A stretch of DNA of 62,834 nt, counting the filler, from Octopus bimaculoides (Eukaryota): assembly GCF_001194135.2 (NCBI RefSeq). It is 5 parts of 5 records of this genome, joined end to end, with 100 filler letters (N's around TTAATTAATTAA, not from the genome) between each part and the next. Parts side by side here need not be neighbours in the genome. Positions count along the whole stretch, not along the records: positions 37,206 to 54,259 come from NW_026390614.1; positions 54,360 to 62,834 come from NC_068987.1; 3 more parts are not named here. The stretch is one strand, 5' to 3'. Of the stretch, positions 5,991 to 62,834 are shown piece by piece; positions within the stretch are counted from its first letter, which is position 1; each line of letters starts with the position of its first letter. Position numbers and translations under genes: made by a program. Under the pieces are notes generated by a model. It searched no databases. It was not told where the DNA came from and was given only the letters and a program-made list of their open reading frames with translations.

Positions 5991-6154
5991 GCGGTGGGTT
6001 TCTTTCAGTTTCCGTCCACCAAATCTACTCATAAGGTTTTGGTCGGCATGAGGCTTTAGTAGAAGACATTTGACTAAGGTGCTACGCAGTGGGACTGAAC
6101 CCGGAACCATGTGGTTGTGAAGCAAGCTTCTTACCACACAGCCACTCCTGCGCC
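5712..6154 (-). mobile_element. tRNA-derived SINE (CORE-like body, internal TA/TACA microsatellite)
   Basis: Reverse copy of the family at 38528-38910, with A/B-box-like head (ggcgcaggagtggctgtgtggt...ggttcagtccc). Confidence 0.85.
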
Positions 6155-6159
6155 TATAC

Positions 6160-6316
6160 TGTATTCAAATTTTGGCACAAGGCTAGCCATTTCAGGGAAG
6201 TGGGTATGTCGATTACACAGTCGACCTCGGCGGAATTTTAACTTAGAACGTAAAGACGAATGAAATACTGCAAAGCATTTTTCCCAGCATGCTAAAAATT
6301 CTGCCAGCACACCGCC
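6160..6316 (-). mobile_element. tRNA-derived SINE, MetaSINE-like family
   Basis: Same family as 17350-17570, 50010-50145 and 62480-62705 (gtcgacctcggcggaattt...ctgccagc). Confidence 0.75.
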
Positions 6317-6329
6317 TTTTAATTTTATA

Positions 6330-6800
6330 TACGAGTTTTGGCTGAAACGGTCATAAGGTGACCAAGATATTGTCCTGGGATGTAGCCAGGTGAGGTTTAA
6401 TTTTTCAACATAGTCCCCCTTGCTAGCCATACATTTCTTCCATCGGTGATGCAGTGCATGGATCCCATTCATGAAGAAGCTTTTTTCGTGTTCGTTAAAA
6501 ACGTCATCAACAGCAGATATGACGTCATCATCACTGCGATATTGGTTCCCAATCAAGTGTTTTTTCATGTTAAGGAACAAATGATGGTCAGATGGATACA
6601 AATCAGGAGAATGTGGAACTTTCTGAAGATAATCGACAAACGCTGCACCTTTTGTATCCCAAAAACCTGAGGCTTGCAGATTACATCTTACAGTTACATC
6701 TTGCAGATGAAAGGACATTGATCTTCTTTAGAGCAGGTGAGGTGGGGTGTTTCCACTGCATGGATTGGCTCAAAGTGATGAAGCTAACACTCGTCCTGGG
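6330..6800 (-). mobile_element. Internally deleted mariner (transposase C-terminus plus one end with TA)
   Basis: FWDTKGAAFVDYLQK fused to PHSPDLYPSDHHLF...RWKKCMASKGDYVEK; the end reads ta|cgag. Confidence 0.9.
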
Positions 6801-7331: not shown

Positions 7332-7431
7332 NNNNNNNNNNNNNNNNNNNNNNNNNNNNNNNNNNNNNNNNNNNNTTAATTAATTAANNNNNNNNNNNNN
7401 NNNNNNNNNNNNNNNNNNNNNNNNNNNNNNN
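7332..7431. other. Artificial scaffold spacer 44N-TTAATTAATTAA-44N
   Basis: Exactly 100 bp; the linker gives stops in all six frames; identical spacers at 13693-13792, 37106-37205 and 54260-54359. Confidence 0.95.
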
Positions 7432-13792: not shown

Positions 13793-14170
13793 ATGTGTCC
13801 ATAGCTTGCACCGGGTACATCTTATAGAGTTACTACCTACTCCTTTTCTACATACTGAGCAGGGCCATCTACCTGAAGGGGTTTGTGTTTTATCTACCTT
13901 CCTACTTATTAGGATTTTGGTTTTAGCTAGGTTGACTCTAAGGCCCTTCAATTCTAGACCTTGCTTCCACACCTGAAACTTCTCCTCTAGTTCTGATAGT
14001 GACTCCGCAATTAGGGCAAGGTCATCAGCATAGAGGAGCTCCCAGGGGCAACCTGTCTTGAACTCCTCTGTGATTGCCTGGAGGACTATGGTAAATAATA
14101 GGGGGCTGAGGACGGAACCTTGGTGGACCCCTACCTCTACCCGGAATTCATTGCTGTACTCATTTTGTCG
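13793..14170 (-). mobile_element. RTE LINE reverse-transcriptase fragment (inverted 5' part)
   Basis: VGVHQGSVLSPLLF...LLYADDLAL (RT motifs including YADD); same family as 42648-46157. Confidence 0.92.
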
Positions 14171-14837
14171 GACATAAGAAGCATCGAATGTGGCATGCAA
14201 GAGAGACGTTTGCGCTGGTATGATCATGTACTACAGATGGATGATGAGAGCTGTGTGAAGAAGTGCCACTCCCAAACAGTTGAGGGAATCCGGAGTAGAG
14301 GGAGACCCAGGAAGACATGGGATGAGGTGGTCAAGCATGACCTTCGAACGTTGGGCCTCACAGAGGCAATGATGAAAGACAGGAACCTCTGGAGATATGC
14401 TGTGCCTGTGAAGACCCAGCAAATAAAGTGAGTTCACGGATGTATCCTACACCAGTTTTGCATAACCAGCCCTAGCTCATTCAAAAGTACCTTAGATTGT
14501 AGGGTGACCTGCTGTGGTTGTGGAGACCTATTGAGTCAAGTACATCAACATCAAAATGAAAATCAAATGGAAATTGTAGTTGTGATACCCGTGCTGGTGG
14601 CACGTAAAAAGCACCATCCGAACGTGGCTGATGCCAGCACTGCCTTGATGGGCTTCCGTGCTGGTGGCACATATAAAGCACCATCCGATCATGGCCGTTA
14701 CCAGCCTTCTCTGGCCCTTGTAAAAAGCATGTAAAAAGCACCCACAACACTCATAGAGTGGTTGGTGTTAGGAAGGGCATCCAGCTGTAGAAACACTGCC
14801 AGATCAGACTGGAGCCTGGTGCAGCCTCCTGGCTTCT
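14171..14837 (+). mobile_element. RTE LINE ORF C-terminus and 3' UTR
   Basis: ERRLRWYDHVLQMD...RGRPRKTWDEVV; the UTR matches 45560-46100. Confidence 0.9.
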
Positions 14838-22896: not shown

Positions 22897-24220
22897 CTAT
22901 GAAAAAGTAATCATTAAATTCAATAAGCCCCTTGATGATGAAGCCAAGAGGATAACAAGTTGAATGTATATTTGTGCATTCACAAATACTTTCATTCATC
23001 ATTAGTAATAAATTAAGAATAAATACATAGTTTGCAGATATATTTGGAAAAACTGCTATTTTATAATTGCTTTTGGCATGAATTCTGAAAACAATTTGTG
23101 GATAATAATTTTCATGCCTATACATATCTTAAATAACATTGTAAAATAAGCCATACATTTTGTGGAGAACCAAAAGGTTAGCAAGAACTAGTTAAACTAA
23201 TCAGTTTTGTTTTTTTTCTTAAATGTCACTAATTTTCTCATTTTAGACCAGATGTTCTTTATTTTTGCCTTGTTTTCCATATTCACACTAAATTTTTTTT
23301 ACTCACTTTAAATCAGTCATGGTAAACATTATGCTGATTATAAGTCTTCGTTGCATTAAAAGTTTTCCTAAAGTGATCCCAAATGTTTATAGAAAACTTG
23401 CACTGTCAAATTGGAATCTCATTACAGAAGAGCTTTAGAGGAAGGTCAAAAGACTACACATGACTAAGACAAGAGATACATTAGGTAACAGAAACCTCAA
23501 AAGTCAACAGTATAAAAAGAATCATTAAGTTGGATGTAAAGAAAGAAGCAGCCTGACACTTCATAATATATTATGGATGTAAATAGAGGTTGACCACAAG
23601 AACTAGTAAAATCAATACCAGAATAGTGGAAAACATTTTTTTTAGATGAAATAGGTACAACAGAATGTCAGACTATTAGCTGAAGGATTTGTGTTTTCCA
23701 TCCCATTGCCAAAATCTTTAAGCAGCAGGAACAATGTATAATTAATGAGCATTTTGTGAGTTTGCTATGCTTAGTTTCAATCATTCAAGAGGTGTGGAGG
23801 AGGTAACTATAAACCCACTCTAGTGTAAATATTCAATAAAAAGTCTTATAAATGTTTTCGCCAAAAGATCTCTAGGAATTGTTTACAACTTGGTGGTAAT
23901 CCTTATATAGAATGTAGTGGCCAACAGAATGTTTGGAGAAAGGTACTGTGTTAGGGGTAGCATATACAATAGCTAAGGTTATATAAGCAATAGGACACCC
24001 AGTGAAATACTTAAATCAAATTTAAAAGTTAGGACTTTTAAGATGAGACAACACAAGGTTGAGATGTATGAAATAATATGTAAGAGAACCAATAAGCCAG
24101 CGCAAGCATATTAACTCCACACTCTAGACATGATGATGAATTGTAAAACTAGATCAATTTATTTTTAAAATTAATTTAAAATATAAGAATTTTATGAAGT
24201 AAATGTATTAGAATACTTAC

Positions 24221-25026
24221 TGTAACTCTTATTGGCTTGATATAGAGATAACGTAGTTTTATTTTGTAAGCACGGATACCTTGTAATTCAACTCGGCTTG
24301 TGAGTTCAAGTTGTTCAATGAATCGAAGAGCATTGGGGACCATTACATGGCCTTCTAAAACATTCTTTTCATTGAAGATGGATGGTGAGCTGCCTTCTTC
24401 ACAAATCCTTTCACTATTTCCAACTACTCTCACTTGAACAACATTATTAGACAAGTTATTTTCTTTAGCAGACGATTTTCCAGTCTGGGACTGGGAAAGC
24501 TCTTTTGGAGATTGAAGTCTAATTAATTTTGCAAAGAATATTCGTGGTATGGATTTCAGTACACTGCACTGGTCTATGATGTCTCCAATGCTGACAAATA
24601 CAATATCCGGATTCTTTAAAAAATGTTTTAATTTAAGGGAATTATTTGAATCAAGAACGTGTTTAGGCATTTCAATACATTCAGTAAGACCCTGCACTCG
24701 TAAAGTCATAGAAACTGAATCTGGGAAGAATTCAGTTTTCTCAGGTATGTTTTCAGCAGGTTGTCTTTCTGTCACTGTAGGAGTTGTCCACATGAAGAAA
24801 CTCTGGAAATACTGAAAAAGTCCTGAGTAAAGAGAAAGGGATTGACTCATATCTTCCAAAGGAGCCATATCCCCAACATTGAGTTTTCGAGGGTTCTTAA
24901 ATAAATTGTTTTTCGTAGTATGTTCTGTCATTTTTTTTTCTATAGATCCAAGACGAGAAAAACGAGAAACTATGACTTCAGTTTCTTGACGGAGTAAAGC
25001 ACATTCAACAGTAGGTTTTATTTTTC
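24221..25026 (-). CDS. PEX1: PEX1 large exon 5 (includes track ORF 24176-24931)
   Basis: ttacag| and |gtaagt; 806 nt open frame, phase 1-0, compatible with both neighbours; PEX1 has a large, poorly conserved fifth exon. Confidence 0.85.
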
Positions 25027-25589
25027 CTGTAAAGCAATTATAAAAAGAAAAAGAAGAAAAGTATCAAAATTAAAGTTTGCGTAATTTATTTTTGTTTATT
25101 TAAAACTGAAAGTATTTTACAGAGAAAGAAAGAGAAAAGTTTATGATTATTTAGAGGTAAATGATTACTTTTAAAAATAAATATATAATTACTTAAATAC
25201 TTAAATCTTTATACTTATATTAAAAGTTGAAAAAACTGAAAATTGTTAGTTTTCAGTTGGTTGTCATCTTTTATTAGAGTAAAATGGAAATATATATCTA
25301 ACAAGAATTTTGATCTGAAATAATGCTGAAAGATATTGAACTTGGAAGAGCCATTTTTGACAATAAAACACATGCACACACAAGTATACTCTAGTTGCAG
25401 CTTTTATTTCTGTCTTAATTGTTTAATTATTTAGTTAGTGATATCAAAGTTCTTCATCCCATTCTCAGTGCTGCTTGGTCATTGATCTCTGTATATCTAT
25501 GTAATTTTCAAGTAATTAGTTCTTACACACTGGTTTCACTAATTAGTGTGTATGACATCAGTAATATATATCTGTGTAATGAAGGCATG

Positions 25590-41698: not shown

Positions 41699-42429
41699 CT
41701 GAAAATGGATAGGTTCTGTCATAAAGTTTTACACACTACAGGCTAAATGACTGATAATACATTAACACTTTATATTATGAGAACACAAAAAAGCACAGCT
41801 ACCTTTGACAGTTTAGAAAATTTGTCAATCATTCCAAACATATTTGAATTATAAACAATTTTGTTTTAATGACAGAGTCATGAATTTGGGTTGGCAAATA
41901 TAAGAGTCCAGAAAGATATCCCATCGTTCAATTACATATGGTGCACAACAACAATTTCAGCATCTAGGCTATTTTGTGACAAATAGGATCAAGTTTTGTA
42001 AATTGTTTATGCATATGATGGTCACTTGCCACATGATTTAAACCCAATGCAATTGGTTAACTTATCTTATTTTACCAGTAAAACAGAACTTGTAAACCAG
42101 AGTATACAAGCACCATGTTACTTTCTGAGGTTTCTGCTGGGACCTTAATCAAATAATCTTTTCAACTGAATATCAGGTTGATGCTCTTAAATATTTTTTA
42201 ATTACTATACATTAAAAAAAAACCAAATCTGAGGTTATGAGTACTGAGATGAGCACACAATGATGGGTGTGAGTTTCTTGGGAGTGTGTGTGGGATATGG
42301 AAATGCACACATGTGAAGAATGGAGGAAGCAATTGTCACATGTAAGTAGACAGATCAGTTAGAGAGGAGCAGAAAGGTTATTAATTAACCAGCAGGTAAA
42401 ACCACGAAAATGTAAAATGTACAACTTAC

Positions 42430-42647
42430 CATGTTTTGAACCGCACCATCACTTAACTCAGCTTCTAAAACCTCAACATCCTTTTGACGAGAGAAATGAA
42501 TTGTATCAGGAAGGTTTCTTGTCTCTGAAATGGAGGATGAGGATAGAATATTTTGAATTAGCTGCAGTATAGACTGCAGCATTTCCCTCTGCTGGGACTG
42601 TTCCTCTTGAATTTTTTCAATTGTAGTGAATAGTTGCTGATCCTGAA
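42430..42647 (-). pseudogene. DUF4806-like pseudogene exon (QDQQLFTTIEKIQEEQ...VEVLEAELSDGAVQNM), acceptor removed by the RTE
   Basis: |gtaagt donor; 218 nt, phase 1-0; coiled coil followed by an LP...VE.LE..L segment. Confidence 0.75.
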
Positions 42648-45600
42648 AGAACACAGGTACAAGATTTTCTGGGCAGGGAACACAGACAGGGTCGGGGGAG
42701 TGGGTATACTTCTTGCAGAGAAATGGGTGGATAAGGTAATCAAGGTAGCCAGAGTATGCGATAGAATACTTAAGATCAGATTAGTCCTTCACCATGGGTT
42801 AGCAACCATTATCTTCGCCTATGCCCCTCAGCCCGGGCTACCCGATGGACAGAAAGACCAATTTTATGACGCCTTCTTGCAGACTACCTCGCCGACGAAT
42901 GACAGGGACCTTCTCTTTGTGGCTGGTGACTTCAATGGTTATGTTGGACAACATTCAGGGGGCTTCCATGGCGTACATGGAGGCTATGGTTTTGGTTCCC
43001 ACAATGAGGAGGGAACCAGGCTGCTGGAGTTCTGTGATGCAAATGACATTATGGTTTACAATACTAACTTCAGGAAACCTGCCAGTCACCTAGTCACCTA
43101 CCGTTCTGGCAGACACACTAGCCAAATTGACTACATCCTCGCCAGAAAAAGGGAAAGATGGCTGCTTATAAATGCCAAAACCTTCCCAGGCGAAGAATGT
43201 ACCCCACAACATAGACTAGTAGTTAGTGACTTCAGTATCAGGGCTAAGTGGTTGCCCAGAAGATGACCAGCATGGAGGAGAAGGGTCTGGAAGCTCAAAG
43301 ATCCTATGGATGGACAGAGATTTAGAGACTTATTACTCGAAGTCTTTGATGAAATAGAAGGGGATGTAGCTTCACACGATGTAGAAGACAACTGGAGGTT
43401 TCTATTGGACAACCTGCTGAGGGCCACTGACCAGATCTGTGGATGGTACAAAGTCCCCTCTCTCACCAAAATGACGTGGTGGTAGAACAATGATGTTGAC
43501 AGGGCTATTAGACAAAAGAAACAGACTTGGAAGGACTGGAAGAACGGTGGTAGCAGGAAATTGTATCAGACTGCCAGAAAGGAAGCTAAGCGATAGGTTT
43601 ATTTAGCCAGAGGGGAAGTAGATAAGAAAAAATTGGCCAATGTTCTGCACCATGAGGATCAAAGATTTGAGGTATTTCGTGTTGCAAGACAGTGTGTGAG
43701 AGAGAATCGTGAGGTCGTGGGAGGGAAATGTGTTCGCATGGATGATGGTACGCTTGCACTAAACGAGGCTGCAAAGAAAGAGGTTTGGAGACGCCACTAC
43801 AAAAGATTGCCCAATAAAAAGAATGAATGTGAGAAAGAGAGTCTGCCGAATGTCGACCCAACAGAGGGACCAGCTATCCAAGTTGACAGTACCATGGTAG
43901 ATAAAGCAATTAAGAGTATGAAGACAGGGAAAGCCCCCGGCCCATCAGGAATCACTGCAGAGATGCTCAAAATATCTGGCAGTGTTGGCTACAGCCTAGT
44001 CACCCGTATTACGAACCAGGTGATACACGAAGGAGTCATACCCAATGACTGGTGTAGCAGCACCATAGTAAACTGCTACAAAGGTAAAGGTAATACTTTA
44101 GGTACAAATAATTACAGAGGTATCAAGTAGTTAGATCAGGTAATGAAAGTCATGGAGAGGGTCATAGCCCAACTAATTAGGGAGAGAGTCAGTTTAGATA
44201 AGATGCAGTTTGGGTTTGTGCCAGAGAAAAGCACCACTGATGCTATATTTCTGGTAAGACAGTTGCAGGAGAAAAACCTAGCCAAAGATAAACCTCTGTA
44301 CCTGGCTTTCGTTGACATGGAGAAAGCCTTTGACAGGGTCCCCCGATCTCTTATCTGGTGGTCAATGAGGAAACTAGGGATAGAAGAATGGTTAGTGAGA
44401 GCTGTGCGAGCCATGTACAGGGACGCTGTCAGTAAGGTGAGAGTTGGCAATGAGTACAGTGAAGAATTCTGGATAGAGGTAGGAGTCCACCAAGGTTCTG
44501 NNNNNNNNNNNNNNNNNNNNNNNNNNNNNNNNNNNNNNNNNNNNNNNNNNNNNNNNNNNNNNNNNNNNNNNNNNNNNNNNNNNNNNNNNNNNNNNNNNNN
44601 NNNNNNNNNNNNNNNNNNNNNNNNNNNNNNNNNNNNNNNNNNNNNNNNNNNNNNNNNNNNNNNNNNNNNNNNNNNNNNNNNNNNNNNAGTTTCAGGTGTG
44701 GAAGCAAGGACTAGAATCGAAGGGCCTTAGAGTCAACCTAGCTGAAACCAAAGTTCTAAGTAGGAAGGTAGACAAACCACAAACCCCTTCAGGTAGATGG
44801 CCCTGCTCGATCTGTAGAAAAGGCGTGGGTAGAAACTCTATAAGATGTACCCAGTGCAAGCTATGGACACATAAGAGGTGCAGCAATATCAAAGGAAGGT
44901 TAACTAGGAAGATAGTTTTTGTATGTGACAGATGTTCAGGAGCAATAAACACTGGAAATGTGCAGAAAACAACTTTGGCTGCATTCCAGGGAGAAAAACT
45001 AGACTAAGTTGATAGCTTCCACTATCAAGGGGACCAAGTTAGTAGAGGGGAAGGGTGCACTGAAAGTGTAGTTGCTAGAATAAGAATAGCCTGGGCAAAG
45101 TTTAGAGAGCTCTTACCTCTGCTAGTGACAAGGGGCCTCTCTCTCAGAGTAAAAGGCAGACTGTATGACGCATGTGTACGAACAACCATGCTACATGGCA
45201 GTGAAACATGGGCCTTGACTGCTGAGGACATGCGCAGGCTTGCAAGGAATGAAGCCAGTATGCTCCGATGTATGTGTAATGTCAGTGTGCATACTAGACA
45301 GAGAGAAAAGTTGAACCTAAGAAGGATCAGTTGTGGTGTGCAAGAGAGACGATTGCGCTGATATGGTCATGTGGCGAGAATGGATGAGGATAGCTGTGTG
45401 AAAAAGTGCCACACCCTAGCAGTTGAGGGAACCTGTGGAAGAGGTAGGCCCAGGAAGACCTGGGATGAGGTAGTGAAGCACAACCTTCGAACATTGGGCC
45501 TCACCGAGGCGATGACTTCTGACCGAGACGTTTGAAAATATGCTGTGCATGAGAAGACCCAGCAAACCAAGTGAGACCTAAATCTAAGGCCTCTGCCAGG

Positions 45601-47250: not shown

Positions 47251-47441
47251 AAACTTGTACTAATGTCATGAAGTATACTCAGCAAGTATTTTGTAACTCT
47301 ACCCTACCTTTTTTCCAACTTTCTATTTCAGTTCAGGATTAGTGGCTATTCACCACAATTGAAAAAATTCAAGAGGAACAATCCTAGCAGAGGGAAATGC
47401 TGCAGCCTGTACTGCAGTTAATTCAAAATATTCTATCCTCA
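47251..47441 (+). repeat. Inverted duplicate of the pseudogene intron end and exon start (pre-RTE state)
   Basis: Reverse complement of 46158-46215 joined to 42540-42647 through an intact ccaactttctatttcag acceptor. Confidence 0.88.
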
Positions 47442-48269
47442 TGTTATTTTGGACATGTCTGACAGCCTACCTGCACTTTCATGTAAAATGAAAGGTGGAT
47501 GGTGAGTAGGGACTCAGAGTTTTACATGCGTGTCCTTGGGAACTGATATGCAGCCCTATTTCCAATGCAAATATTACATTCAACAAACATGGGGTGATCC
47601 TAGCTGTCAGATATGGTGATAAACCCCAAGACATAAAAAAATAAACGAACATCTAAAAAAGATTCGTTAATTATACTTATTATTAAAGAACTGTCTGTTT
47701 GAAATCTGTAGACAGGCTATCTGTAGCTCTCCTAATGATATCTATTTCTGTAGGGTTTCATTAAGAAATTTGAAATATATTTTGAGCTGTGGTAGGTTTA
47801 TGTTTGTTTTTGGCTACATGCATCAAAACAAATAATCTGTCAAATGTTAATAGCCATCAATTATTAGCTTTAAATGTAAATGCCATAATGTTTGTTGATG
47901 CTTAGAAAAAACAATTTTAACATCTTTTTCCATCCCAATTTAACATACCTTAAATTAAACATGTGTCAGTTTGGATTCAAGTTGTGAAAATGGCATGCAC
48001 TATTCTTCACTGAAACATATGATTCACAATTAATTGTTTAACATTTCTGGAATAAAAGGACATTAAATTTTCCCATACATTATATTGAACTGGCAAAATT
48101 TTAAAGCGTTTTTAGTCTTAATTATGACACTAGATAAATCATGTTTTTTTTTAATCCTAACTTTCGACAGGGATATTGAATTTCCCTGCTTTTGATGTGG
48201 AAAATGAAAGGATTGTATTTTGAGTTGCTTCTCCTGCTCCTGCATGAAGCAAAAGGACATTGCATGTCT

Positions 48270-48900
48270 AACTGCAGTACGACAGCAATCCAGGTGGAGA
48301 AAAAGGTGAAAGACCTGAAAGCCAAAACAATAACTTCAGTGGCTCGATGACTGCTGGCTGAGCAAGGAATTTCTGAGCAGATCATATGTGACAATGGAAC
48401 CCAGGTCACATCTCAGGAATTCAAAAAGTTAGCCAATGAGTATGGGTTCAACATCATAACCTCATCACTACACTACCCCAAAGATCAAGGATTCATAGAA
48501 AGACAGGTGTAGACAATCAAGAAAACACTAGTCAAATGCCTGGCACTTCTGTCCTTATGAGCAACACTACTGAGGATTGACATGAAGTTTCCAGCAGATA
48601 TGCTGAATGGCAGGAAATATAAACCCACCCTATCAACAAAAATCCAACCTCCTATTGACCAGGAAGAGACAAGGGCAAAGCTAGCAGCCTCTCAAAAGCA
48701 AGGACAGGAATATTATAACAAACATGCACAGTACTTACCTGAGATACTTGGAGAACAACATGTGCATACTCAAGATCCTATAACCAAAACATGGATCCCA
48801 ACACAAGTTGTCAGTAGAGCTGAAACTCTTAAGATCATGCATTATACAAACTGAATCTAGTAAGCAACTGAGACGAAACAGGGCCCACATTCGCCCAACA
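48270..48900 (+). mobile_element. Gypsy/Ty3 integrase relic
   Basis: EQGISEQIICDNGTQVTSQEFKKLANEYGFNIITSSLHYPKDQGFIERQV core, then PADMLNGRK and QLRRNRAH C-terminal motifs; stops and frameshifts. Confidence 0.88.
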
Positions 48901-52467: not shown

Positions 52468-52965
52468 CGCATTTTTCTTTTCCTGGTTATTTCGCATGCT
52501 TTCAACGAATGACATTGAAATCACACGTAAGCAGCTTTTTTTCTCCAGNNNNNNNNNNNNNNNNNNNNNNNNNNNNNNNNNNNNNNNNNNNNNNNNNNNN
52601 NNNNNNNNNNNNNNNNNNNNNNNNNNNNNNNNNNNNNNNNNNNNNNNNNNNNNNNNNNNNNNNNNNNNNNNNNNNNNNNNNNNNNNNNNNNNNNNNNNNN
52701 NNNNNNNNNNNNNNNNNNNNNNNNNNNNNAACTCAAACCCTAACCCTAACCCTGACCCTAACCCTAACCCTAACCCTAAACCTAACCCTAACACTAGTTT
52801 TGTGAGATTTGGCTGTTATTTCTAGCATGTAAATAGCCTGCTTGGTGGGGGGGGGGGATTGAAATTTTTCAAAAAAATTTTTTTCAGAATCGGAATCTCC
52901 ATAGCCTAAAAGTGGTCCATCTCTACCGAAGCATGCGAAATAATCTGAAAGAAAAAAAATCCGCG
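52468..52965. mobile_element. TIR element containing a (CCCTAA)n telomeric-type tract
   Basis: ~35-bp TIRs (ttatttcgcatgct / agcatgcgaaataa); CCCTAA array at 52730-52795, next to a gap. Confidence 0.65.
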
Positions 52966-53306
52966 AACGGGTCCTTTACGAAATATTTACCGATAAATTG
53001 TCAGTTACCAAAACCTGTTACATTGTTCCTTACGCACATTCAAGCGGATAACTATGCTAGCATGTATCTCTCCACTGTAATATTAAAATAACCGATTCGT
53101 AGATACGTTGACTCCGCCTCCTTTATCCATGCTATATAGAAATCCAAATGTACTTTTATGCCTGTCACAAATATAAGTGATCACGCAAGTTTCTATCACC
53201 CAAGAAAAACTTCTTTCTCTCTCCCGCTTCTCCTCTCAGTGTTTCTTTTTATCTCTGTTTTTCGCCATTGCCAGGAGTTATTTTGAAACTAGTCGCGAGA
53301 ATCAAC

Positions 53307-53343
53307 ATGGACGCTATTCTAACAATTCTTCTGCTATTCACAG
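53307..53343 (+). CDS. Candidate first coding exon with a signal-peptide-like start MDAILTILLLFT(G)
   Basis: caacATGG context; CAG|gtaatt phase-1 donor; long pyrimidine tract with a gccag| acceptor at 53274. Confidence 0.55.
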
Positions 53344-53889
53344 GTAATTAACTATGTTCTTTTTTTTTCTTTAAAAGCATTCGCTCGTTACACTGAAAAT
53401 GTTAAGAGTTACATTTAGTTTTTTTCTATTTAAACTTTATGAATTCTAAATTAATGTTATTTTCCAATTTAATCTGAAGTGTTGCAGGTCTCTCTTTATT
53501 AAGTAGCTCTACGATGTTTATATAATGTAGTTTGATCATTATTCGGTAAATTTTCAAGGTAAATTTTCAGATTAACACCCGCACGATTTTCACTAAGGTG
53601 TTAGGGTTAGTGTTTTAGGGTTAGGGTTACGGACGGAATTGACTATTTTTTTTGTTGTCATTACTATATATTCTTAAACATTTGGCGTATGCAGTCATCT
53701 TCATAGCACCTTATTTTTACTCTTTTATTTGTTTTAGTCATTTGACTGCGGCCATGCTAGAGCACCGCCTTTAGTCGAACAAATCGACTCCAGGACTCCT
53801 CCTTTGTAAGTCTAGTACTTATTGGATCGGAATCTATTGCCGAACCGCTAAGTAACGAGGGCGTAAACAGACAAACATACACACATCTG

Positions 53890-53932
<43 letters not shown>

Positions 53933-54259
53933 AACAGTATCGATCATATTATAGTGTTGTGTAGTCGATGTGTCACCCATTGTAACGATAAGTATTATTT
54001 ACCAATTGTACTGGTTATAAGATGAACGATGAAGATGATCAACATTTTTATAGAAATATTTATTTACCGTTACTTGCATAGTTGCCATACCACGACGGGT
54101 AGGTTAGTGTAATAGTATAACAGTTTGTACGTAAAGCATACAAGGTAAAGAATTTCGGCCTGTATCTGTATGTACACTTTCTCATAGTAGTAGATATATA
54201 TATATATATATATACGTATAGGGAGAGAATTTACAAAAAAAAACAAAAGACGAAGACAA

Positions 54260-54359
54260 NNNNNNNNNNNNNNNNNNNNNNNNNNNNNNNNNNNNNNNNN
54301 NNNTTAATTAATTAANNNNNNNNNNNNNNNNNNNNNNNNNNNNNNNNNNNNNNNNNNNN
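54260..54359. other. Artificial scaffold spacer
   Basis: 44N-TTAATTAATTAA-44N. Confidence 0.95.
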
Positions 54360-54836
54360 ATGAAATCATTTTCAAGAGAGGAGATAATAATGAAAATTAC
54401 AAAGTTACAAAGTATGAATTTAAGAATTTATAAAATTACACGCACGTAAATGCATATTTTGCACATTGTTGCAAATTTCAAAAGAATATTGAAACTTAAG
54501 TGTTTATAGATTGCATTTAGGAAACCTAGTTTTACTGTATTGCATCATAATTGAAAAGCAAATAGTTATAGTTATGCATGGTTTTGGGGAATATGAAGCA
54601 GGTGAACGAATCATACCATTGTTTGACAACATTAAAGCTATGAATTACAGCTACATAGTTGTCCATGCCAATGATATTATATGAATTCGTATGAAATGAA
54701 ACGATCACATACTATTGGAAGTATTGTTAGAGTAAACATAAAAATGATATACTGTATATTCATAACATCTGTTATGGAAAATGACTTTGTAATTAGATTT
54801 TCTTTGTATAATAATACGTATTTTATATATTTTTAG

Positions 54837-54866
54837 GTGGAACCACTAATGCTACAACTACAAAAG
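54837..54866 (+). CDS. Symmetric phase-1 micro-exon, 30 nt: (G)GTTNATTTK
   Basis: tttttag| and AAG|gtaatt; stop-free, with an N-A-T sequon. Confidence 0.6.
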
Positions 54867-56572
54867 GTAATTGATGCTCGTACATAATTATGTTATTACT
54901 GAAAAAAATTTATAATTATAATATTCAACGGTTGAATCATAATTTCTTGGGGTAACAACATGACAGAATCTTTAACAGGTATAACAAATCCATAAGCACC
55001 TCGTCGTCTATCTCCTTTCGGTATATGTTGAAATGCCGGCTAGATTATCATTGTATTACCTCCTGTCGAAGGCAATGAAATAAAGTCGCACTCAACCATC
55101 TCGTTCCATGGAAACTATTGAATAGACGCCCAGAAAATTGCTGGACCTGTGCCCATATTTGCAGTAATTTATATTTTCATTACCAACTATTTTAAAATAA
55201 GAAAATATTTATGTTTTGACATGTAAATATCATAAAGAGGTGCCAAACAATAAGTACTGGTGTATGTTGCTATATATTGATACCTATTTGAAAGTCATTT
55301 TACAGAATGTTATATGTTGCCATGCATTGATGTATAATTTATTGTAAATCAGTGATTGAACTCTAGGAAACCGCGCTTCACAGACATTGCCAGTAATAAA
55401 TATTTATTTCTCACATGGATATGCTGTCTCAGTTTTGGAAGTGGTTAGTATAATGAATGGAATAGAAAGCCAACAATGATAACAGATTTACGATAATTAA
55501 GCGGAACTAGAACTGAAATTCTCTAAGACGTGAAAGGGAGTTCGGTGATTGATTGATTGATTGATGTATTTACGGTCATAGGAATTTGGAGAAATACAGA
55601 ATTTTCTAGAAAGATTGTAAGTGAAGAAATCTCACCCAATTTGTGAAAGTCATATTTCTTCAAGAACTCTTATCGTAATTGTCAGTGAAATCATTTTCAT
55701 AAAAGAGGAGATAATGAAAGTAACAAAGTATGTATTTTACGTTGTTACAAAGTTATACGTACGTTTGTGTAGTTTTTACATATTCCAGTAAAGCTTGAAA
55801 TAGTATTGAATCTTAATTGTTTATAAATTGCATTTAACAGACTAGATTTACTATGTTGCTTTATAATTTTAAATGAAATAGTTATAGTGATGCATGGTTT
55901 CGGGGAAGAGGAAGCAATTGAACAAATTCAGCGACACCATTAACGCTATACCTCACAACATGCGTTATACCTTCGTGCTGTAACGTTAGATTATTAATAT
56001 CTTTTGTATGATGAATAGCACACAAAACTGTAATGAGCGTAGAGAAATATCTGATGCAGATATTAAATGATAATTCTGTATAAAGTAAAGTGGATGTTAC
56101 TCGTGCTGTATGTCCCAATACCGACTACTTAGTTTGTTGTATAAGGTAAATAACTGAGATAACTTCATGATAAAACAGAATGTCATGTCTTTTATATAAT
56201 CAGATATATGTAATTAACAAACTAACAATATTTATTCTTTATTAAATGCCAATAATATATTCTTTGTGTATTATTTGCGATGTCTACCATGAACTAAATT
56301 TCATTATCGTACCTATGTCATGGCCATAGGAATAACGCTTATAGTATCGCTTATTCATCAGAATGATTTTCATTGGAAACTACCTTTTTCTAATCTTGAG
56401 GTATTGTTCTCTATTTCAATTACATTACATTGAATGACACGATGTCATACCATTGAAGATATTATTAAACATAAACATATAAAAATACATTATATATTCA
56501 TAGTATCTATTACGGAATATGATATTTGTCGTCGGATTTTGTTCGTGTAATAGGAATTTTCTTTAGTTACAG

Positions 56573-56605
56573 GTACGCAAACTACTGAGACATCTCAGAA
56601 AACAG
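56573..56605 (+). CDS. Symmetric phase-1 micro-exon, 33 nt: (G)TQTTETSQKT, GC donor
   Basis: ctttagttacag| and CAG|gcaaat; positional paralogue of 54837-54866. Confidence 0.5.
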
Positions 56606-57959
56606 GCAAATTAAACTCGTATATAAATATGAATTTAATGATGCTCCCAGTCACAACAAAATATTCAATGAATTTTTTAGATTGTTATATTCATCATTGT
56701 ATTGATAGTTTCATGAGGTAACGAGCTTACATTTGTTAACGCGTTCGAGAAAAAAACTGAGCAGCTCATACTCCGTATACTTTCGGTCTGCATTGTAACA
56801 CCGCCGAAACATTCATTACCTAACATCCTGTCGGAGGCAGTAAAATGAAGTCGTACTCAAATATTTGGGTCAATGTAATCGATTAAACCAATCACCCTAA
56901 ATTTTGCCGGAATCGTGTCCGAATTTAAAGTTATCTTCTTTGACTACTATATAATTACAACAATAATTATGTTATGAATTGTGGCAAAAAATATAGAATG
57001 GTGTTAAACACTTCATATCGATGTATGTTGCTATATATTATTATATAGCTGTAAATTACTTTAAAGAAAGTTATATGGGGATATGGTCAGAACATTGAAG
57101 CATAATTTATTGTAAATCAATGTTCGAAATTTGGAGAAAACTGTGCCTCTAATAACTATTTATTACTTACATCGACAACATGTCTCAGTTTAGGAAGTGG
57201 TTAGTATAATGAATGGAATAGAAAGCCTATAATAGATTTACTATTATTTAGAAGAGGTAAAACTGAAATTGTCTAAGATGTATACAGGTTTAAGGTGAAT
57301 GATTGATTTGAATACTGATGACACTGTACTTGCAGTCATAGGAATGGCGTAAAAAATAGAATTGTCTAGAAAGGCTATAAGTTAAGAGATCTGTTTGAGT
57401 TTATGAAACATTTTTCATTACGAACTCTTACTATAATCATTAGTGAAAATATTTACAATAGAGGAGATGATAATGAAATTTCACAAAGTATGAAATTTAC
57501 GTATTTAACAAATTACATGCACATATGTATAGATTTTCGATGTTGTCGTAATTTTAAAAGATAGGATTCAAACTCAAGTGTTTATAAATTACAAACTCTA
57601 CTCCAAGTTCTTAGCGATGCCAGTTTGTAAGGGATCGACATAGTGCTGGTGCCTCTAATGAAAGCAGCAAGTACTCACGGCAGAATGGATCGATAAATTG
57701 AACAGGAATAACGCTGGTTTGATTGGACATTTTCTACATACAAGAGCAAGAGACACTCGATAGGCAGGTTAAAAGTGCAACCTATACCCTCTCAATGGAA
57801 TCAATTCCTGTAATTAAGCTTGAATGAATCTATATTATATCATTGAAGATACTAATAGATCAAACATAAAAATATATATTTCATACTTATAATATGTATT
57901 ACTGTGTATGTTTTCTTAATCAGATTTACTTATTATAAAATGTATTTTCTATAATTTCG

Positions 57960-57993
57960 GTCAGAGACACTTCTGATATCAAGAACAAAACAG
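57960..57993 (+). pseudogene. Decayed paralogous micro-exon (acceptor AG>CG; ...DTSDIKNKT, GC donor)
   Basis: Homologous position in the third unit; 34 nt from the mutated acceptor, or 27 nt from a cryptic GAG. Confidence 0.4.
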
Positions 57994-59329
57994 GCGAATG
58001 TTGCTCCTATATAACTCTATTAATATTGACTGAATTTTACAATTATAACATTATTTCTTCTATTGATAGTTTCCTGAGGTAACGAGCTGATAGTAATCGT
58101 TAATGAGTCGAACAATATGCTGAGCAGCTCATCCTCCGTTTCCTTTCGTTGTACGTTCAAATGCCGCCAAAATGATTATTGCCTTTCATCCTGTCGGAGG
58201 CGGTAAAATAAAGTCGCACACTTTTTGGGTCAATGTAATCAGTTAAACAATTTTAATTACGTAAACAATTTTAACCTGTAAAACATTTTAATGTTATGAG
58301 CTGTCAGAATAGTTAGCACTAGGAGAAAGTGTTGAGCCGCACTTCTTGGGTCTCTCTCCGTTATGCGTTCAAAAGTGCGAGGCCAACTTTGCTTATCATA
58401 CTCTCGTTCGCGATAAATTTAAGTCGCAGGCAAGTACAGAGTGCGATGTAATTCATTAGACTACGCTGACCGAAAATTGCTGGATCTGTGCAAAAATTTC
58501 AAGCAGCTGATCATTTCATGTCCAACTGTAATAAAAATGTGTTACTAAATATTTTGTGACATGTTGCATATATCGTACACTGAGGTATGACAATATAAAT
58601 TTGTTACTATATTACTGTACGTATCTGCACACTACTTTATGACAGTTATGTAGGGACTTGTTCCGATATTGAAATATGCTTTATTGTGAAACATTAAAAT
58701 TAGATTGAAACATTAAAATAACAAAGAATAATAGATGACATACAACTACTATATTACAGTTTGCGATTTGAGAACTGTCAGATATTCGCTCAATACCATA
58801 TATGAAGTTAAATGCAACAGAAACTAGCGATAGTTTTGTTGTTTCCTGGAACGGAAGAATATGTTATATGAGTCCGTGTTTGAATCGGCACAACCAGAAA
58901 CGCAAAACAATAATTAACAATTATCTTGTGTCGTTTTTTATTTGAACAGGATTGTTATATATCTTTAGGAATTCTTCATGATATGATAGTGTGAGATAAT
59001 TCTGCAAATAGTTTAGTTATATTTAGGATGAAATATTTTGCTGTATCTTTTGTATTCATGACAAGTGAATGAAACGACCAATGAACAATCTATTTTTAAG
59101 TCCTTCATTGAATTCTATATATTAAGTTCATCAGATATTTGCTAAAGTAAATATCTTCATTTTAGGATATGATCATAATAACGCATTTCATAGAATTTGT
59201 AACCAGTCGCGAGATATTTCGGAACAGTGAAAATTAGTCCCTCGCTTAAACAGAGAGGACATGGCCTTCTTAAATCTTTTTTCAGAAAGAGCAGATTAAA
59301 AGACAATCCTTGTTAGATTCGAAGTCCAG

Positions 59330-59870
59330 TCTTCACGCTAATATCCCCCTGTGTATTAGGATCAGAAGTAGTAGAACTCTGGATTAACAAATACCCATGA
59401 ATAATTCAGGAGAAATTTCCTAAAATTTTGTACTTGAATGATTTCGATTCGGACTAGAAAACTACTTTTCTGATAACCAACATTGCCTAGAAATACAAAA
59501 CAGAACAAAAGTCGTGCTAACGTTTGCCTCACAAACAATGTGACTTCTGGAAGAAAAAATTCTATACTCTCTCTGGAATTCCGTTTGATCAGCATTTCCA
59601 ATCCTATTTAACGGGAGACTGGAAAAGATTCCAGGATGAATGTTTCATATTTTTGAACAAAAGTAAGGAGAACTTTTCAAGATGCCTCAGTTTAATAAAC
59701 GGCATTTATGAATCGATCCAGTTCACTATGGAACTGAATGCAAAGAAGCTTCCTTTTCTGGTTACTCTGACAGTTAAAGAAAATGAAATGATTATAACCG
59801 TTTTCTACTGCAAGAACTCAGACACATGAAATTATATACATTTTAGCTCTTGCTACCCGTCACAGAAAAC
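59330..59870 (+). mobile_element. Penelope-like element RT relic
   Basis: WKRFQDECFIF...INGIYESIQFTMELNAKKLPFL...YCKNSDT*NYIHFSSCYP matches the PLE RT C-terminus. Confidence 0.8.
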
Positions 59871-59874
59871 TAAA

Positions 59875-59975
59875 TAAATCGATGAAATAAGTACCAGTTA
59901 CGCACTGGTTTCGATGTAATTGACTAGCCCCCTTCCTCCACATTTCAGGTCCTGTGCATATAGTAGAAAGGATTA
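59875..59975 (+). mobile_element. MetaSINE-like 3' half
   Basis: gatgaaataagtaccag...gtagaaaggattatt. Confidence 0.75.
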
Positions 59976-60848
59976 TTAAACAGATTTTATAATCATAATA
60001 TTTAGAAGAATAGTTTTGGTTGCTTTGCTCGAGACGTTTCCGTTGAAACTACAGAAATACAATTTAAGATTGCAAATTTGTTAGGTATTGTTCCAAAGAC
60101 ATATGAAGGTGGAATCATCAGCTGTTAGTGACAGATTTTGCTGATGCCTGGACTGGGTGAAATGTGTTTATGAATGAACAGTGTGAAGTGTCATTCTTAC
60201 AATCCAGTCATACAAAACATTATGAGAGGAACATTATACCACAGACCTTCACCTGTATTAAGTTACATGCTTTCTATCGATGAATTGAATTTATACCACA
60301 GGTTAAATATATTTTGTGTACCGAATGGGCAACTTAATATTCATCATATATTATACAGATCGATTGCGAGATATCAGAAATTTCTGTTCTCATGCTGTCT
60401 CCTCTTTGAACAGGATTGCCATATATTTTGAGGAATTATTCATCATATGATGATGACATGAGTTAACACGGTAGTTACGTTTACGGTGAACCAGTGTCAT
60501 TTCCTTCGTATAGTTTACGGTCGAAATATTATGAAACGAACAATACTTTCTCCATTTTCATGTCGGTTTTAACTCTGTGTGTTTCCAACAGACATATGAT
60601 AAACTAAAAATCTTCCGTATGGTACATAGCCTCATAGTAACATATTGCATTTTGGAGATATTCACTGGACATTTACGGAGTTTCTATTCATGGTTTTTAT
60701 TTGAGCATATTTGCCACAATTTTAATTGATTATTTTACTGTATGATATATAATCTGAAACGTTATGAGACAAAGCAGAAATATATATTTGTCTTATTAAA
60801 TAGAGTTTCATAGTTTGAACATAACATGTATCTGTCTGCATTTTCCAG

Positions 60849-60884
60849 GATCAGGTGCAGCTGCAAGCTTTGAAAATCCAAAAT
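60849..60884 (+). CDS. Symmetric phase-1 micro-exon, 36 nt: (G)SGAAASFENPK
   Basis: gcattttccag| and |gtaagt; strong sites, stop-free. Confidence 0.65.
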
Positions 60885-61764
60885 GTAAGTAATGCTTATA
60901 AATGCATGTACTATTATCCTTTATATCTTACATTCGTGTTGTTTATAATTTCGTTAATGGATTCATTCATATCTTTAATAATAATAGTAAAATATCTTTT
61001 TAATGAAATGTTATATATCAAATGTCATTATATATAACTGTTACAACAAATTTGTATTGCTATTTATTTATATATACGTGAGGTTGAAATTTGCTTTGAT
61101 GAAAATATTATGTTGAATTTTGAAAATAATTTCTTGACATGACGGTGAATTATTGATTGAAGCAATATATCAATATGAAATAGTGGAAGTTGTGCATTAC
61201 TCTCATTGAATCTAATAGAAATTAATTTCGAACAACTACATCGTGTTAAAAATTAGTAAACTTAAGATCAATATCTACGAATAGAAGGAAATCTACAGCT
61301 TTTAATTTATTTATTTGCACTAAAATTTAAAGTGTAGTCTATGAGTGAGTAGGTGAAATGAATGTTTTAACTTCAGAACAATAAGCATTTAGCCGTAATG
61401 TGAATTTCGGCAAATGTAGTATCTTATTCTATGATTTTTATTCTCAAAATACCTTTCAAACTAAAAAAAACATTTAATATACTTGATTTTCACTTACTAT
61501 AAATACCAATGAAATTATTTAATTCATAATAGATTAAAAGGAAATTTTAAGAATTATAAAAATTACGTACGATTACTTAGCATATCTAGAATTGCTGCTT
61601 TCTAGCGTTTCATTTTTATTTCGTGAAATATGCACAGGTTTGAATTGGCAAGAAGAATCATTTATGTGAAATGTTTGCAAGTGAATTTATCGGATTTTGA
61701 ACTTATGTAAACGTTTTCATCATTATAGCCAGTTGACAATTGATGAAGTCGTTATATGAGTAGA

Positions 61765-61773
61765 AAATTGATG

Positions 61774-61842
<69 letters not shown>

Positions 61843-62340
61843 TCCTTGATGCAGTACCAGGCAGTGGCTTTCATAGATTTTCATCTTAACTGACTCGAAA
61901 TGCTATCATGTACATTGTGCTGTCTCGGTATAAAAGATGGGCTACAGCGAATATTCTGCACTACCATAGATTTGCTTGTCAGTTGTTTCATCTTAACCAG
62001 TTGAACATGTCCCTTAGTGCGTGACGATATGTGCATCTCTGATCATGAGCAGAAGGAGTAGGGGAGCATCATAGCCATGTGTTGAGAGGAATTCTTTGGG
62101 GTTTGGATAATTCACCTTTGGAAACATGGGTGTTTCGTTCAACATCCTTAAACAACCCTTATTCTGGGGCCTTTTGATCAGGATGGGCTACTCGACCTGA
62201 AGAAAATTCTAACTGGGCTCCTCGGGAAGGTCATGCGGTGTTAATCTTAGTATGAGATCACCATGTCACACACATATGGTTGTGATGCATGTGCCTGGTA
62301 TACCCTTATCAGACAGGTAGTCATGATGTGTCTCTTTGAT
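61765..62340 (-). mobile_element. Dispersed retroposon-like repeat with a (TTA)n tail
   Basis: GC-richer body abutting a (AAT)n array; family not assigned. Confidence 0.5.
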
Positions 62341-62362
62341 GGCATGCACTGCTCTCTCACTC

Positions 62363-62404
<42 letters not shown>

Positions 62405-62405
62405 A

Positions 62406-62463
<58 letters not shown>

Positions 62464-62479
62464 TAATAATAATAATAAT

Positions 62480-62703
62480 AATAATGATCCTTTCTTCTGG
62501 AAGCAGAAGGCTACAAATTTTGGAGGAAGGAATAAAGTCGATTACATCGACCACAGTGCCTAACTGGTACTAATTTTATCGGCCCCGAAGGATGAAAGGC
62601 AAACTCAACCTCGGCGGATTTTGAATTCAGAAGGTACCGACGGGCGAAATACCGCTAAGCATTTCGTCCAGTGTGCTAAAGATTCTGCCAGCTTGCCGTG
62701 TTC

Positions 62704-62768
<65 letters not shown>

Positions 62769-62834
62769 GGCCTGAAATTGTGGGGAGGGGGATAGTCAAT
62801 TACATCGACCCCAATACTCAAATGGTACTTGATT
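62480..62834 (-). mobile_element. Two tandem MetaSINE-like copies separated by (AAT)n
   Basis: Same family as 17350-17570. Confidence 0.8.

Follow-up and report, generated by a model that had tools for sequence, protein, structure and literature searches.

The 62,834-nucleotide stretch of Octopus bimaculoides DNA studied here (the window) is AT-rich animal DNA and comprises 17 runs of N, including four 100-base spacers at 7332, 13693, 37106, and 54260. Around the last of these spacers, a putative signal-peptide exon (E1) is followed on the same strand by four stretches of 27 to 36 nucleotides (nt), designated A to D, for which a role as symmetric, phase-1 micro-exons had been proposed in an original prediction. 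The introns around A to D were found to be tandem copies of one another, with D residing in an older fourth copy, which is new relative to that prediction. The tandem array is real, and the micro-exons within it are plausible candidates. The following features form the core of the locus:

53180–53343, plus strand: E1, likely first exon, 5' untranslated region plus coding part at 53307–53343 (from sequence, ATG context, and the word content of sequencing runs)
54260–54359, no strand: artificial scaffold spacer (44 N, TTAATTAATTAA, 44 N)
54837–54866, plus strand: candidate micro-exon A, 30 nt, phase 1-1, TAG/GTAATT, Thr-rich, one N-x-T sequon (from sequence; splice rank 1)
56573–56605, plus strand: candidate micro-exon B, 33 nt, phase 1-1, CAG/GCAAAT (GC donor), Thr/Ser-rich (from sequence; splice rank 2)
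57967–57993, plus strand: candidate C, likely a decayed copy, 27 nt, GAG/GCGAAT (GC donor) (from block alignment; splice rank 26)
60849–60884, plus strand: candidate micro-exon D, 36 nt, phase 1-1, CAG/GTAAGT consensus donor (from sequence; splice rank 5)

The positions, lengths, and phases originally given for these five stretches were confirmed in the sequence, all of them being stop-free (A to D in phase 1), as was the spacer separating the ATG exon from the micro-exons. The peptide string deduced for the spliced product agreed with the sequence except at one junction, where the residue before C had been counted twice: the actual residue is Asp, not Gly followed by Asp. The candidates are poor in T (0.15–0.22 vs. 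0.37–0.43 in their flanks), and the lengths of A, B, and D differ by multiples of three. Under the predicted splicing, A, B, and D together would encode a peptide with Ser or Thr at 13 of 32 residues and one N-x-T sequon. Alternative in-frame acceptors on the plus strand were noted at 56567, a weak site that would extend B to 39 nt, and at 60804, which scores above D's own acceptor and would extend D to 81 nt.

Alignment of the surrounding introns resolved the array into four units:

54360–55685, plus strand: tandem block A, the intron unit that contains candidate A (from block alignment)
55686–57443, plus strand: tandem block B (from block alignment)
57444–58250, plus strand: tandem block C; a partial re-duplication lies behind it at 58293–58762 (from block alignment)
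60473–61569, plus strand: older fourth block around D (from flank alignments to blocks A and B)

The blocks starting at 54360, 55686, and 57444 align at offsets of approximately 1320–1765 and 1360–1390 bases and are about 70% alike, with 799 of 1100 aligned bases being identical between blocks A and B. Candidates A, B, and C occupy the same alignment columns of the three blocks. Regarding D, the intron on its 3' side aligns to those after B and A (scores of 128 and 98, respectively, with none of 200 shuffles reaching either value), and the stretch on its 5' side aligns weakly to that of B (score of 55, 1 of 200 shuffles as high); the same 5' stretch did not align significantly to its counterparts in blocks A and C, whose scores were equalled by 108 and 31 of 200 shuffles, respectively. 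D itself lies approximately 28 nt off the exact column of B, within a 134-nt interval whose flanks bracket B, where about 0.009 D-level candidates would be expected by chance according to a post hoc scaling of the resampling null described below. Since block A begins at the edge of the spacer, further blocks may be missing there.

Blocks A, B, and C each carry a decayed piece (approximately 54995–55100, 56760–56880, and 58120–58215) resembling a transcribed repeat that draws reads at 58179–58211. This piece is seemingly absent from D's block, which would date the duplication of D earlier. Furthermore, a second local duplication was observed upstream of D (58744–59223 and 60047–60679), the copies being split by an insertion at approximately 59230–59978; no counterpart of D's exon was detected in the first copy.

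Candidate C appears to represent a dead copy, because the ancestral acceptor AG, functional in appearance in B, reads GG at the homologous site of block C. The AGs left there are a CAG and a GAG, giving lengths of 29 and 27 nt, respectively. The idea that the candidates diverge faster than their flanks was also considered and discarded: identity was lower in all three pairs under one alignment, and with other gap settings only two of nine tests reached p<0.05, both for the pair B–C, the effect thus being alignment-dependent.

Splice-site scores were calculated with a small model trained only on the 11 acceptors and 11 donors of PEX1, a minus-strand gene of the window described below, with a penalty of 4 bits for GC donors (the analyst's choice). 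The ranked set consisted of all in-frame, stop-free plus-strand candidates of 21–45 nt in the whole window. Here, A ranked first, B second, D fifth, and C 26th, and one candidate on the minus strand reached the score of D. Score sums were 17.7 for A, 14.7 for B, 12.7 for D, and 8.8 for C, compared to 8.9–21.5 for real PEX1 exons left out in turn. According to 100 Markov-resampled copies of 54360–61760, the number of equals expected per copy was 0.03 (A), 0.16 (B), 0.5 (D), and 2.7 (C). When both strands were considered with no frame filter, the ranks changed to 4 (A), 18 (B), 44 (D), and 251 (C) of 3103, and a heavier GC penalty moved B in this unfiltered set to rank 64 of 2725 (7 bits) or 234 of 2447 (10 bits). 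Hence, A stands out locally, B and D score moderately, and C is at chance level.

The coding part of E1 is 37 nt long, encodes 12 mostly hydrophobic codons, and ends in phase 1 at the donor GTAATT. Its start codon at 53307 has a good context and is preceded by no other in-frame ATG after the stop at 53178. Hydropathy over seven residues peaks at 3.36 at residue 4, and small residues are present at a plausible cleavage site. Nowhere else on the plus strand of the window is a good-context ATG combined with a hydrophobic stretch and a GT donor in phase 1; because the minus strand features three such look-alikes of the chance type, E1 alone is not beyond chance by its sequence. It shares strand and phase with A to D and lies less than 1.5 kb from A. 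Phase-1 introns were described to be enriched near the signal-peptide cleavage sites of secretory-protein genes (PMC1626468). E1 is alike in ending in phase 1 a few codons 5' of the predicted cleavage site, although this phase by itself is weak evidence, as the bias is a general property. A possible promoter element was recognized upstream:

53133–53140, plus strand: TATA-like box, possible promoter, assigned by eye and putative, approximately 34 nt 5' of TCA at 53165–53167

Searches for relatives of E1 returned no match. A protein search with E1 read into the upstream open frame yielded 27 candidates of 71–2000 amino acids, none at E≤10, and the search for relatives of 29–95 amino acids gave zero candidates; both negatives are weak, as a match of 12 residues cannot become significant. 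The E1 pattern had no matches in metagenome contigs, the E1 frame had none in Pfam, and the peptide motifs sought in the literature were not found. An Rfam scan of 52730–62834 gave nine matches, all on TA/TG microsatellite and all far under the gathering score. In the vicinity of E1, telomere-like TAACCC repeats were observed upstream (approximately ten units at 52736–52796), together with a shorter inverted set within its first intron (53597–53632). The two sets share a few further bases and are perhaps two copies of one element.

In addition, 22 sampled words of 53180–53420 were searched in 24 listed sequencing runs, including three raw RNA runs that were not indexed. In total, 19 runs were positive, 17 of them with 15 of the 22 words and one with 14 (18 runs from five studies), and two runs contained next to none; a run with all 22 words was set aside as a possible source of the sequence. 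An exon extending from 53180 or earlier to 53343 is predicted to contain 14 of the words, as opposed to four for an exon starting at 53275. The counts of 14–15 words in 18 runs therefore fit, if only indirectly, a transcribed first exon ending at 53343, for which the 5' untranslated region likely starts at or before approximately 53200. None of the 19 positive runs is recorded as RNA, so that their RNA status is a guess and the counts are compatible with transcription rather than proof of it. The original exon start at 53275 was not confirmed, as 15 of 22 words would then be obtained with P ~5e-7, assuming evenly sampled words. Use of 53275 as the acceptor of an internal exon of 69 nt is disfavoured rather than refuted by the word share. 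Alternatively, the 15 words could originate from an unspliced transcript of 53275–53420 or from private variants in the assembled animal.

PEX1 provides a comparison for linkage across the spacers. A minus-strand open reading frame (24176–25060) gave protein matches to octopod and cuttlefish PEX1, and 11 exons encoding residues 35–850 were mapped to 36527–15249 on the minus strand, separated by ten introns with a maximum length of 8.9 kb. The best PEX1 match for the window is that of Octopus bimaculoides (826 of 851 residues identical in tblastn, overhangs included), followed by other species (O. vulgaris with 813/850, O. sinensis with 812/850, and Argonauta with 696/850, overhangs included). 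Residues 1–34 (exon 1) and the last 340 residues (851–1190) were not found in the flanking parts of the window, which measure 26.3 kb and 15.2 kb, respectively, and cross other spacers. Either the pieces may be out of order, or the missing exons may fall in assembly gaps. A comparable case, a myosin-VIIa exon absent from an O. bimaculoides assembly, is mentioned in the SPLASH report (10.1101/2022.06.24.497555). The possibility that E1 is the missing first exon of PEX1 was rejected, since it is located on the wrong strand and does not match.

Taken together, we tentatively read the locus as an exon-duplicated, Thr/Ser-rich stalk behind a signal peptide, forming part of a larger secreted or surface protein, with A, B, and D as micro-exons and C as a decayed one. 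Of the originally proposed combination of a signal-peptide exon with micro-exons, this retains E1, the sole such candidate on the plus strand, and A, B, and D on account of their exon-like ends, low T content, and homologous block positions, and gives up C. One ancestral phase-1 micro-exon with 1.3–1.8 kb of flanking intron would have undergone at least three head-to-tail duplications, the first of which gave rise to D's block. The length of every copy is divisible by three and both of its ends are in phase 1, so that the reading frame would survive whether a copy is retained, skipped, or lost. The match in strand and phase suggests that E1 and A to D are truly joined. E1 and the start of A would then encode an approximately 18-residue signal peptide, and the micro-exons A, B, and D a short N-terminal Thr/Ser-rich stalk that may be O- and N-glycosylated. 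The remainder of the protein would be encoded beyond 62834, given that the consensus donor of D leaves the frame in phase 1. The duplication and the sequence features are established, and splicing, linkage, secretion, glycosylation, and skipping are inferred.

Several observations weigh against this reading. Four of the 24 listed runs were aligned to 54360–61760, namely two raw RNA runs with 12.9 and 11.5 million reads and two contig sets containing the words of E1. No depth was obtained on A, B, C, or D in any of the four, in an alignment that lacked a positive control and had E1 and the E1–A junction outside the aligned stretch. No joint was placed at any candidate, and the predicted combinatorial skipping with a variable-length stalk was not observed. 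All 12 listed joints are located within repeat fragments, and the bin depth of 0.07 at D, equivalent to approximately 17 letters, is not attributable to D. Nearly all aligned reads were drawn by a single repeat:

59879–59978, no strand: high-copy transcribed repeat fragment, presumably similar to a short interspersed nuclear element (SINE)

Low-depth intronic contigs in runs X13 and X5 were not regarded as a sign of transcription. If spliced, A, B, and D would yield perfect pieces of 32–39 nt. Since repeat pieces as short as 33 and 37 nt seem to have been aligned, albeit inside longer diverged repeats, the empty alignment counts against common inclusion of the candidates. Its reach is limited by unspecified run tissues, by contigs indicating presence rather than absence, and by some silently dropped records. 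If the stalk reading is true, the empty result in four runs implies that the candidates are included only in certain tissues or isoforms, or that the alignment tool concealed their inclusion. Furthermore, the GC donors of B and C have no G at +5, A, B, and C feature no conservation at the amino-acid level, and A and B are paralogous, hence not independent. PEX1 illustrates that the exons expected next may be missing from the piece on the other side of such a spacer. The failure to find a protein relative of E1 would be a weak point, given the 12-residue query.

A possible though doubtful explanation is that the array is a relic or unlinked to E1, the latter being real but splicing past dead copies A to D or, if the spacer connects unrelated pieces, to another gene, and A to D belonging to a different or silent gene. 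This would account for the absence of contigs on A, B, and D in both contig sets harbouring E1's words and of reads in both raw runs, for the lost acceptor of C, and for the intron downstream of E1, which has no homology to the blocks (97, 109, and 59 of 200 shuffles as high). The failure of PEX1 to continue across the neighbouring spacers in the window points in the same direction. However, a random join would be unlikely to place a phase-1 signal-type exon 0.9 kb before the end of one piece and phase-1, Thr-rich candidates on the same strand after it, and A and D have retained strong sites despite a block divergence of about 30% or more. It is unlikely that A to D are not exons at all but chance AG...GY pairs in an AT-rich intron, copied by neutral segmental duplication. 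Window-wide, approximately 0.5 A-level candidates are expected (scaled from 0.03), C does not exceed chance, and once the frame filter is removed, B is preceded by 17 candidates and D by 43; conservation no better than that of the flanks and the lack of RNA support would fit as well. Such pairs would, however, hardly explain why, of the five best in-frame candidates on the plus strand of the 62.8 kb, three occupy corresponding places of one 6-kb array, with A, B, and D differing in length by multiples of three and all being low in T.

More far-reaching interpretations draw on the micro-exon genes (MEGs) of flatworms. These are described as consisting mostly of very small symmetric exons, encoding signal peptides, undergoing exon skipping, and apparently being restricted to flatworms (PMC4350168, PMC4015677); they possess 10–20 exons of 6–81 nt (10.1101/2023.06.21.545858), and exon duplication near mobile elements was reported for MEG-3 (PMC4350168). 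Micro-exons make up as much as 75% of the coding sequence of MEGs. A MEG-like cephalopod gene, i.e., a small secreted protein encoded mostly by symmetric micro-exons, with numerous combinations of skipped exons generating a pool of variants, appears improbable. The putative signal-type first exon, the symmetric candidate exons of 27–36 nt, the kilobase introns, and the exon duplication beside repeats match the layout given in PMC4350168 and PMC4015677, and the candidates are the most diverged block windows in one alignment. Against this, the divergence signal disappears under other gap settings, skipping was not observed in the four runs, and the 3' part of the gene, on which the micro-exon share of the coding sequence would depend, lies outside the window. 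Quite unlikely, too, is a tandem-duplicated, frame-preserving micro-exon array in the N-terminal region of a secreted or surface protein, with new (A, B), dying (C), and ageing (D) copies and tissue-specific skipping, that evolved independently of flatworms and was missed by annotation. The MEGs of Schistosoma mansoni resemble the predicted layout of the octopus locus in that they start with a signal-type exon, have small symmetric exons and introns of 1–3 kb, and show duplication near mobile elements. They differ in having 10–20 micro-exons, which make up most of the coding sequence, and demonstrated skipping, as opposed to three or four sequence-level candidates in a free-living mollusc; sequence homology is not expected. 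Because the window's best PEX1 match places it in Octopus bimaculoides, outside the flatworm lineage, and its MEG-like features are predictions from sequence, the locus was not classed as a MEG and resembles one in layout only.

In the receptors CD45 (PTPRC) and CD44, the signal exon is followed by phase-1, Ser/Thr-rich cassette exons of roughly 90–200 nt, and the stalk by a membrane-spanning segment as well as folded domains (fibronectin III and phosphatase, or Link). The octopus candidates would likewise be phase-1, Ser/Thr-rich cassettes that could lengthen a glycosylated stalk, a resemblance only, and the variable exons of the receptors are several times longer. No phosphatase, Link, or transmembrane part was seen downstream of D within the window. 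Literature searches revealed no comparable micro-exon gene in octopus or other cephalopods, although bioRxiv supplements, which lay outside the search, may list such exons. The available parts of PMC11703226 and 10.64898/2026.09.05.749416 contain no description of such a gene.

Broken frames at 59230–59880 (plus strand) appear retroelement-like by eye, with no convincing Pfam match. Broken copies of the long interspersed nuclear element (LINE) type, with Pfam endonuclease and reverse-transcriptase matches, are located at 42634–45361 (plus strand) and 13793–14230 (minus strand), and an integrase-core fragment at 48351–48509 (plus strand; Pfam rve, E 6e-5, under the curated cut-off). The regions 42385–42780 and 47332–47443 share an inverted stretch of 111 bases, derived from an open frame of 131 amino acids that has no clear family. 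A frame of 198 amino acids at 6131–6727 (minus strand) has no Pfam match and is presumably a mariner transposase piece, judging by eye.

If the candidates are not spliced, the locus would consist of an ordinary signal exon next to a decayed duplication of intron sequence. If they are spliced, it would record the stepwise growth of a micro-exon array by tandem duplication of an exon together with its flanking intron, and the death of a copy by acceptor loss. If they are also skipped combinatorially, the array would constitute a MEG-like source of protein variants outside the parasitic flatworms.

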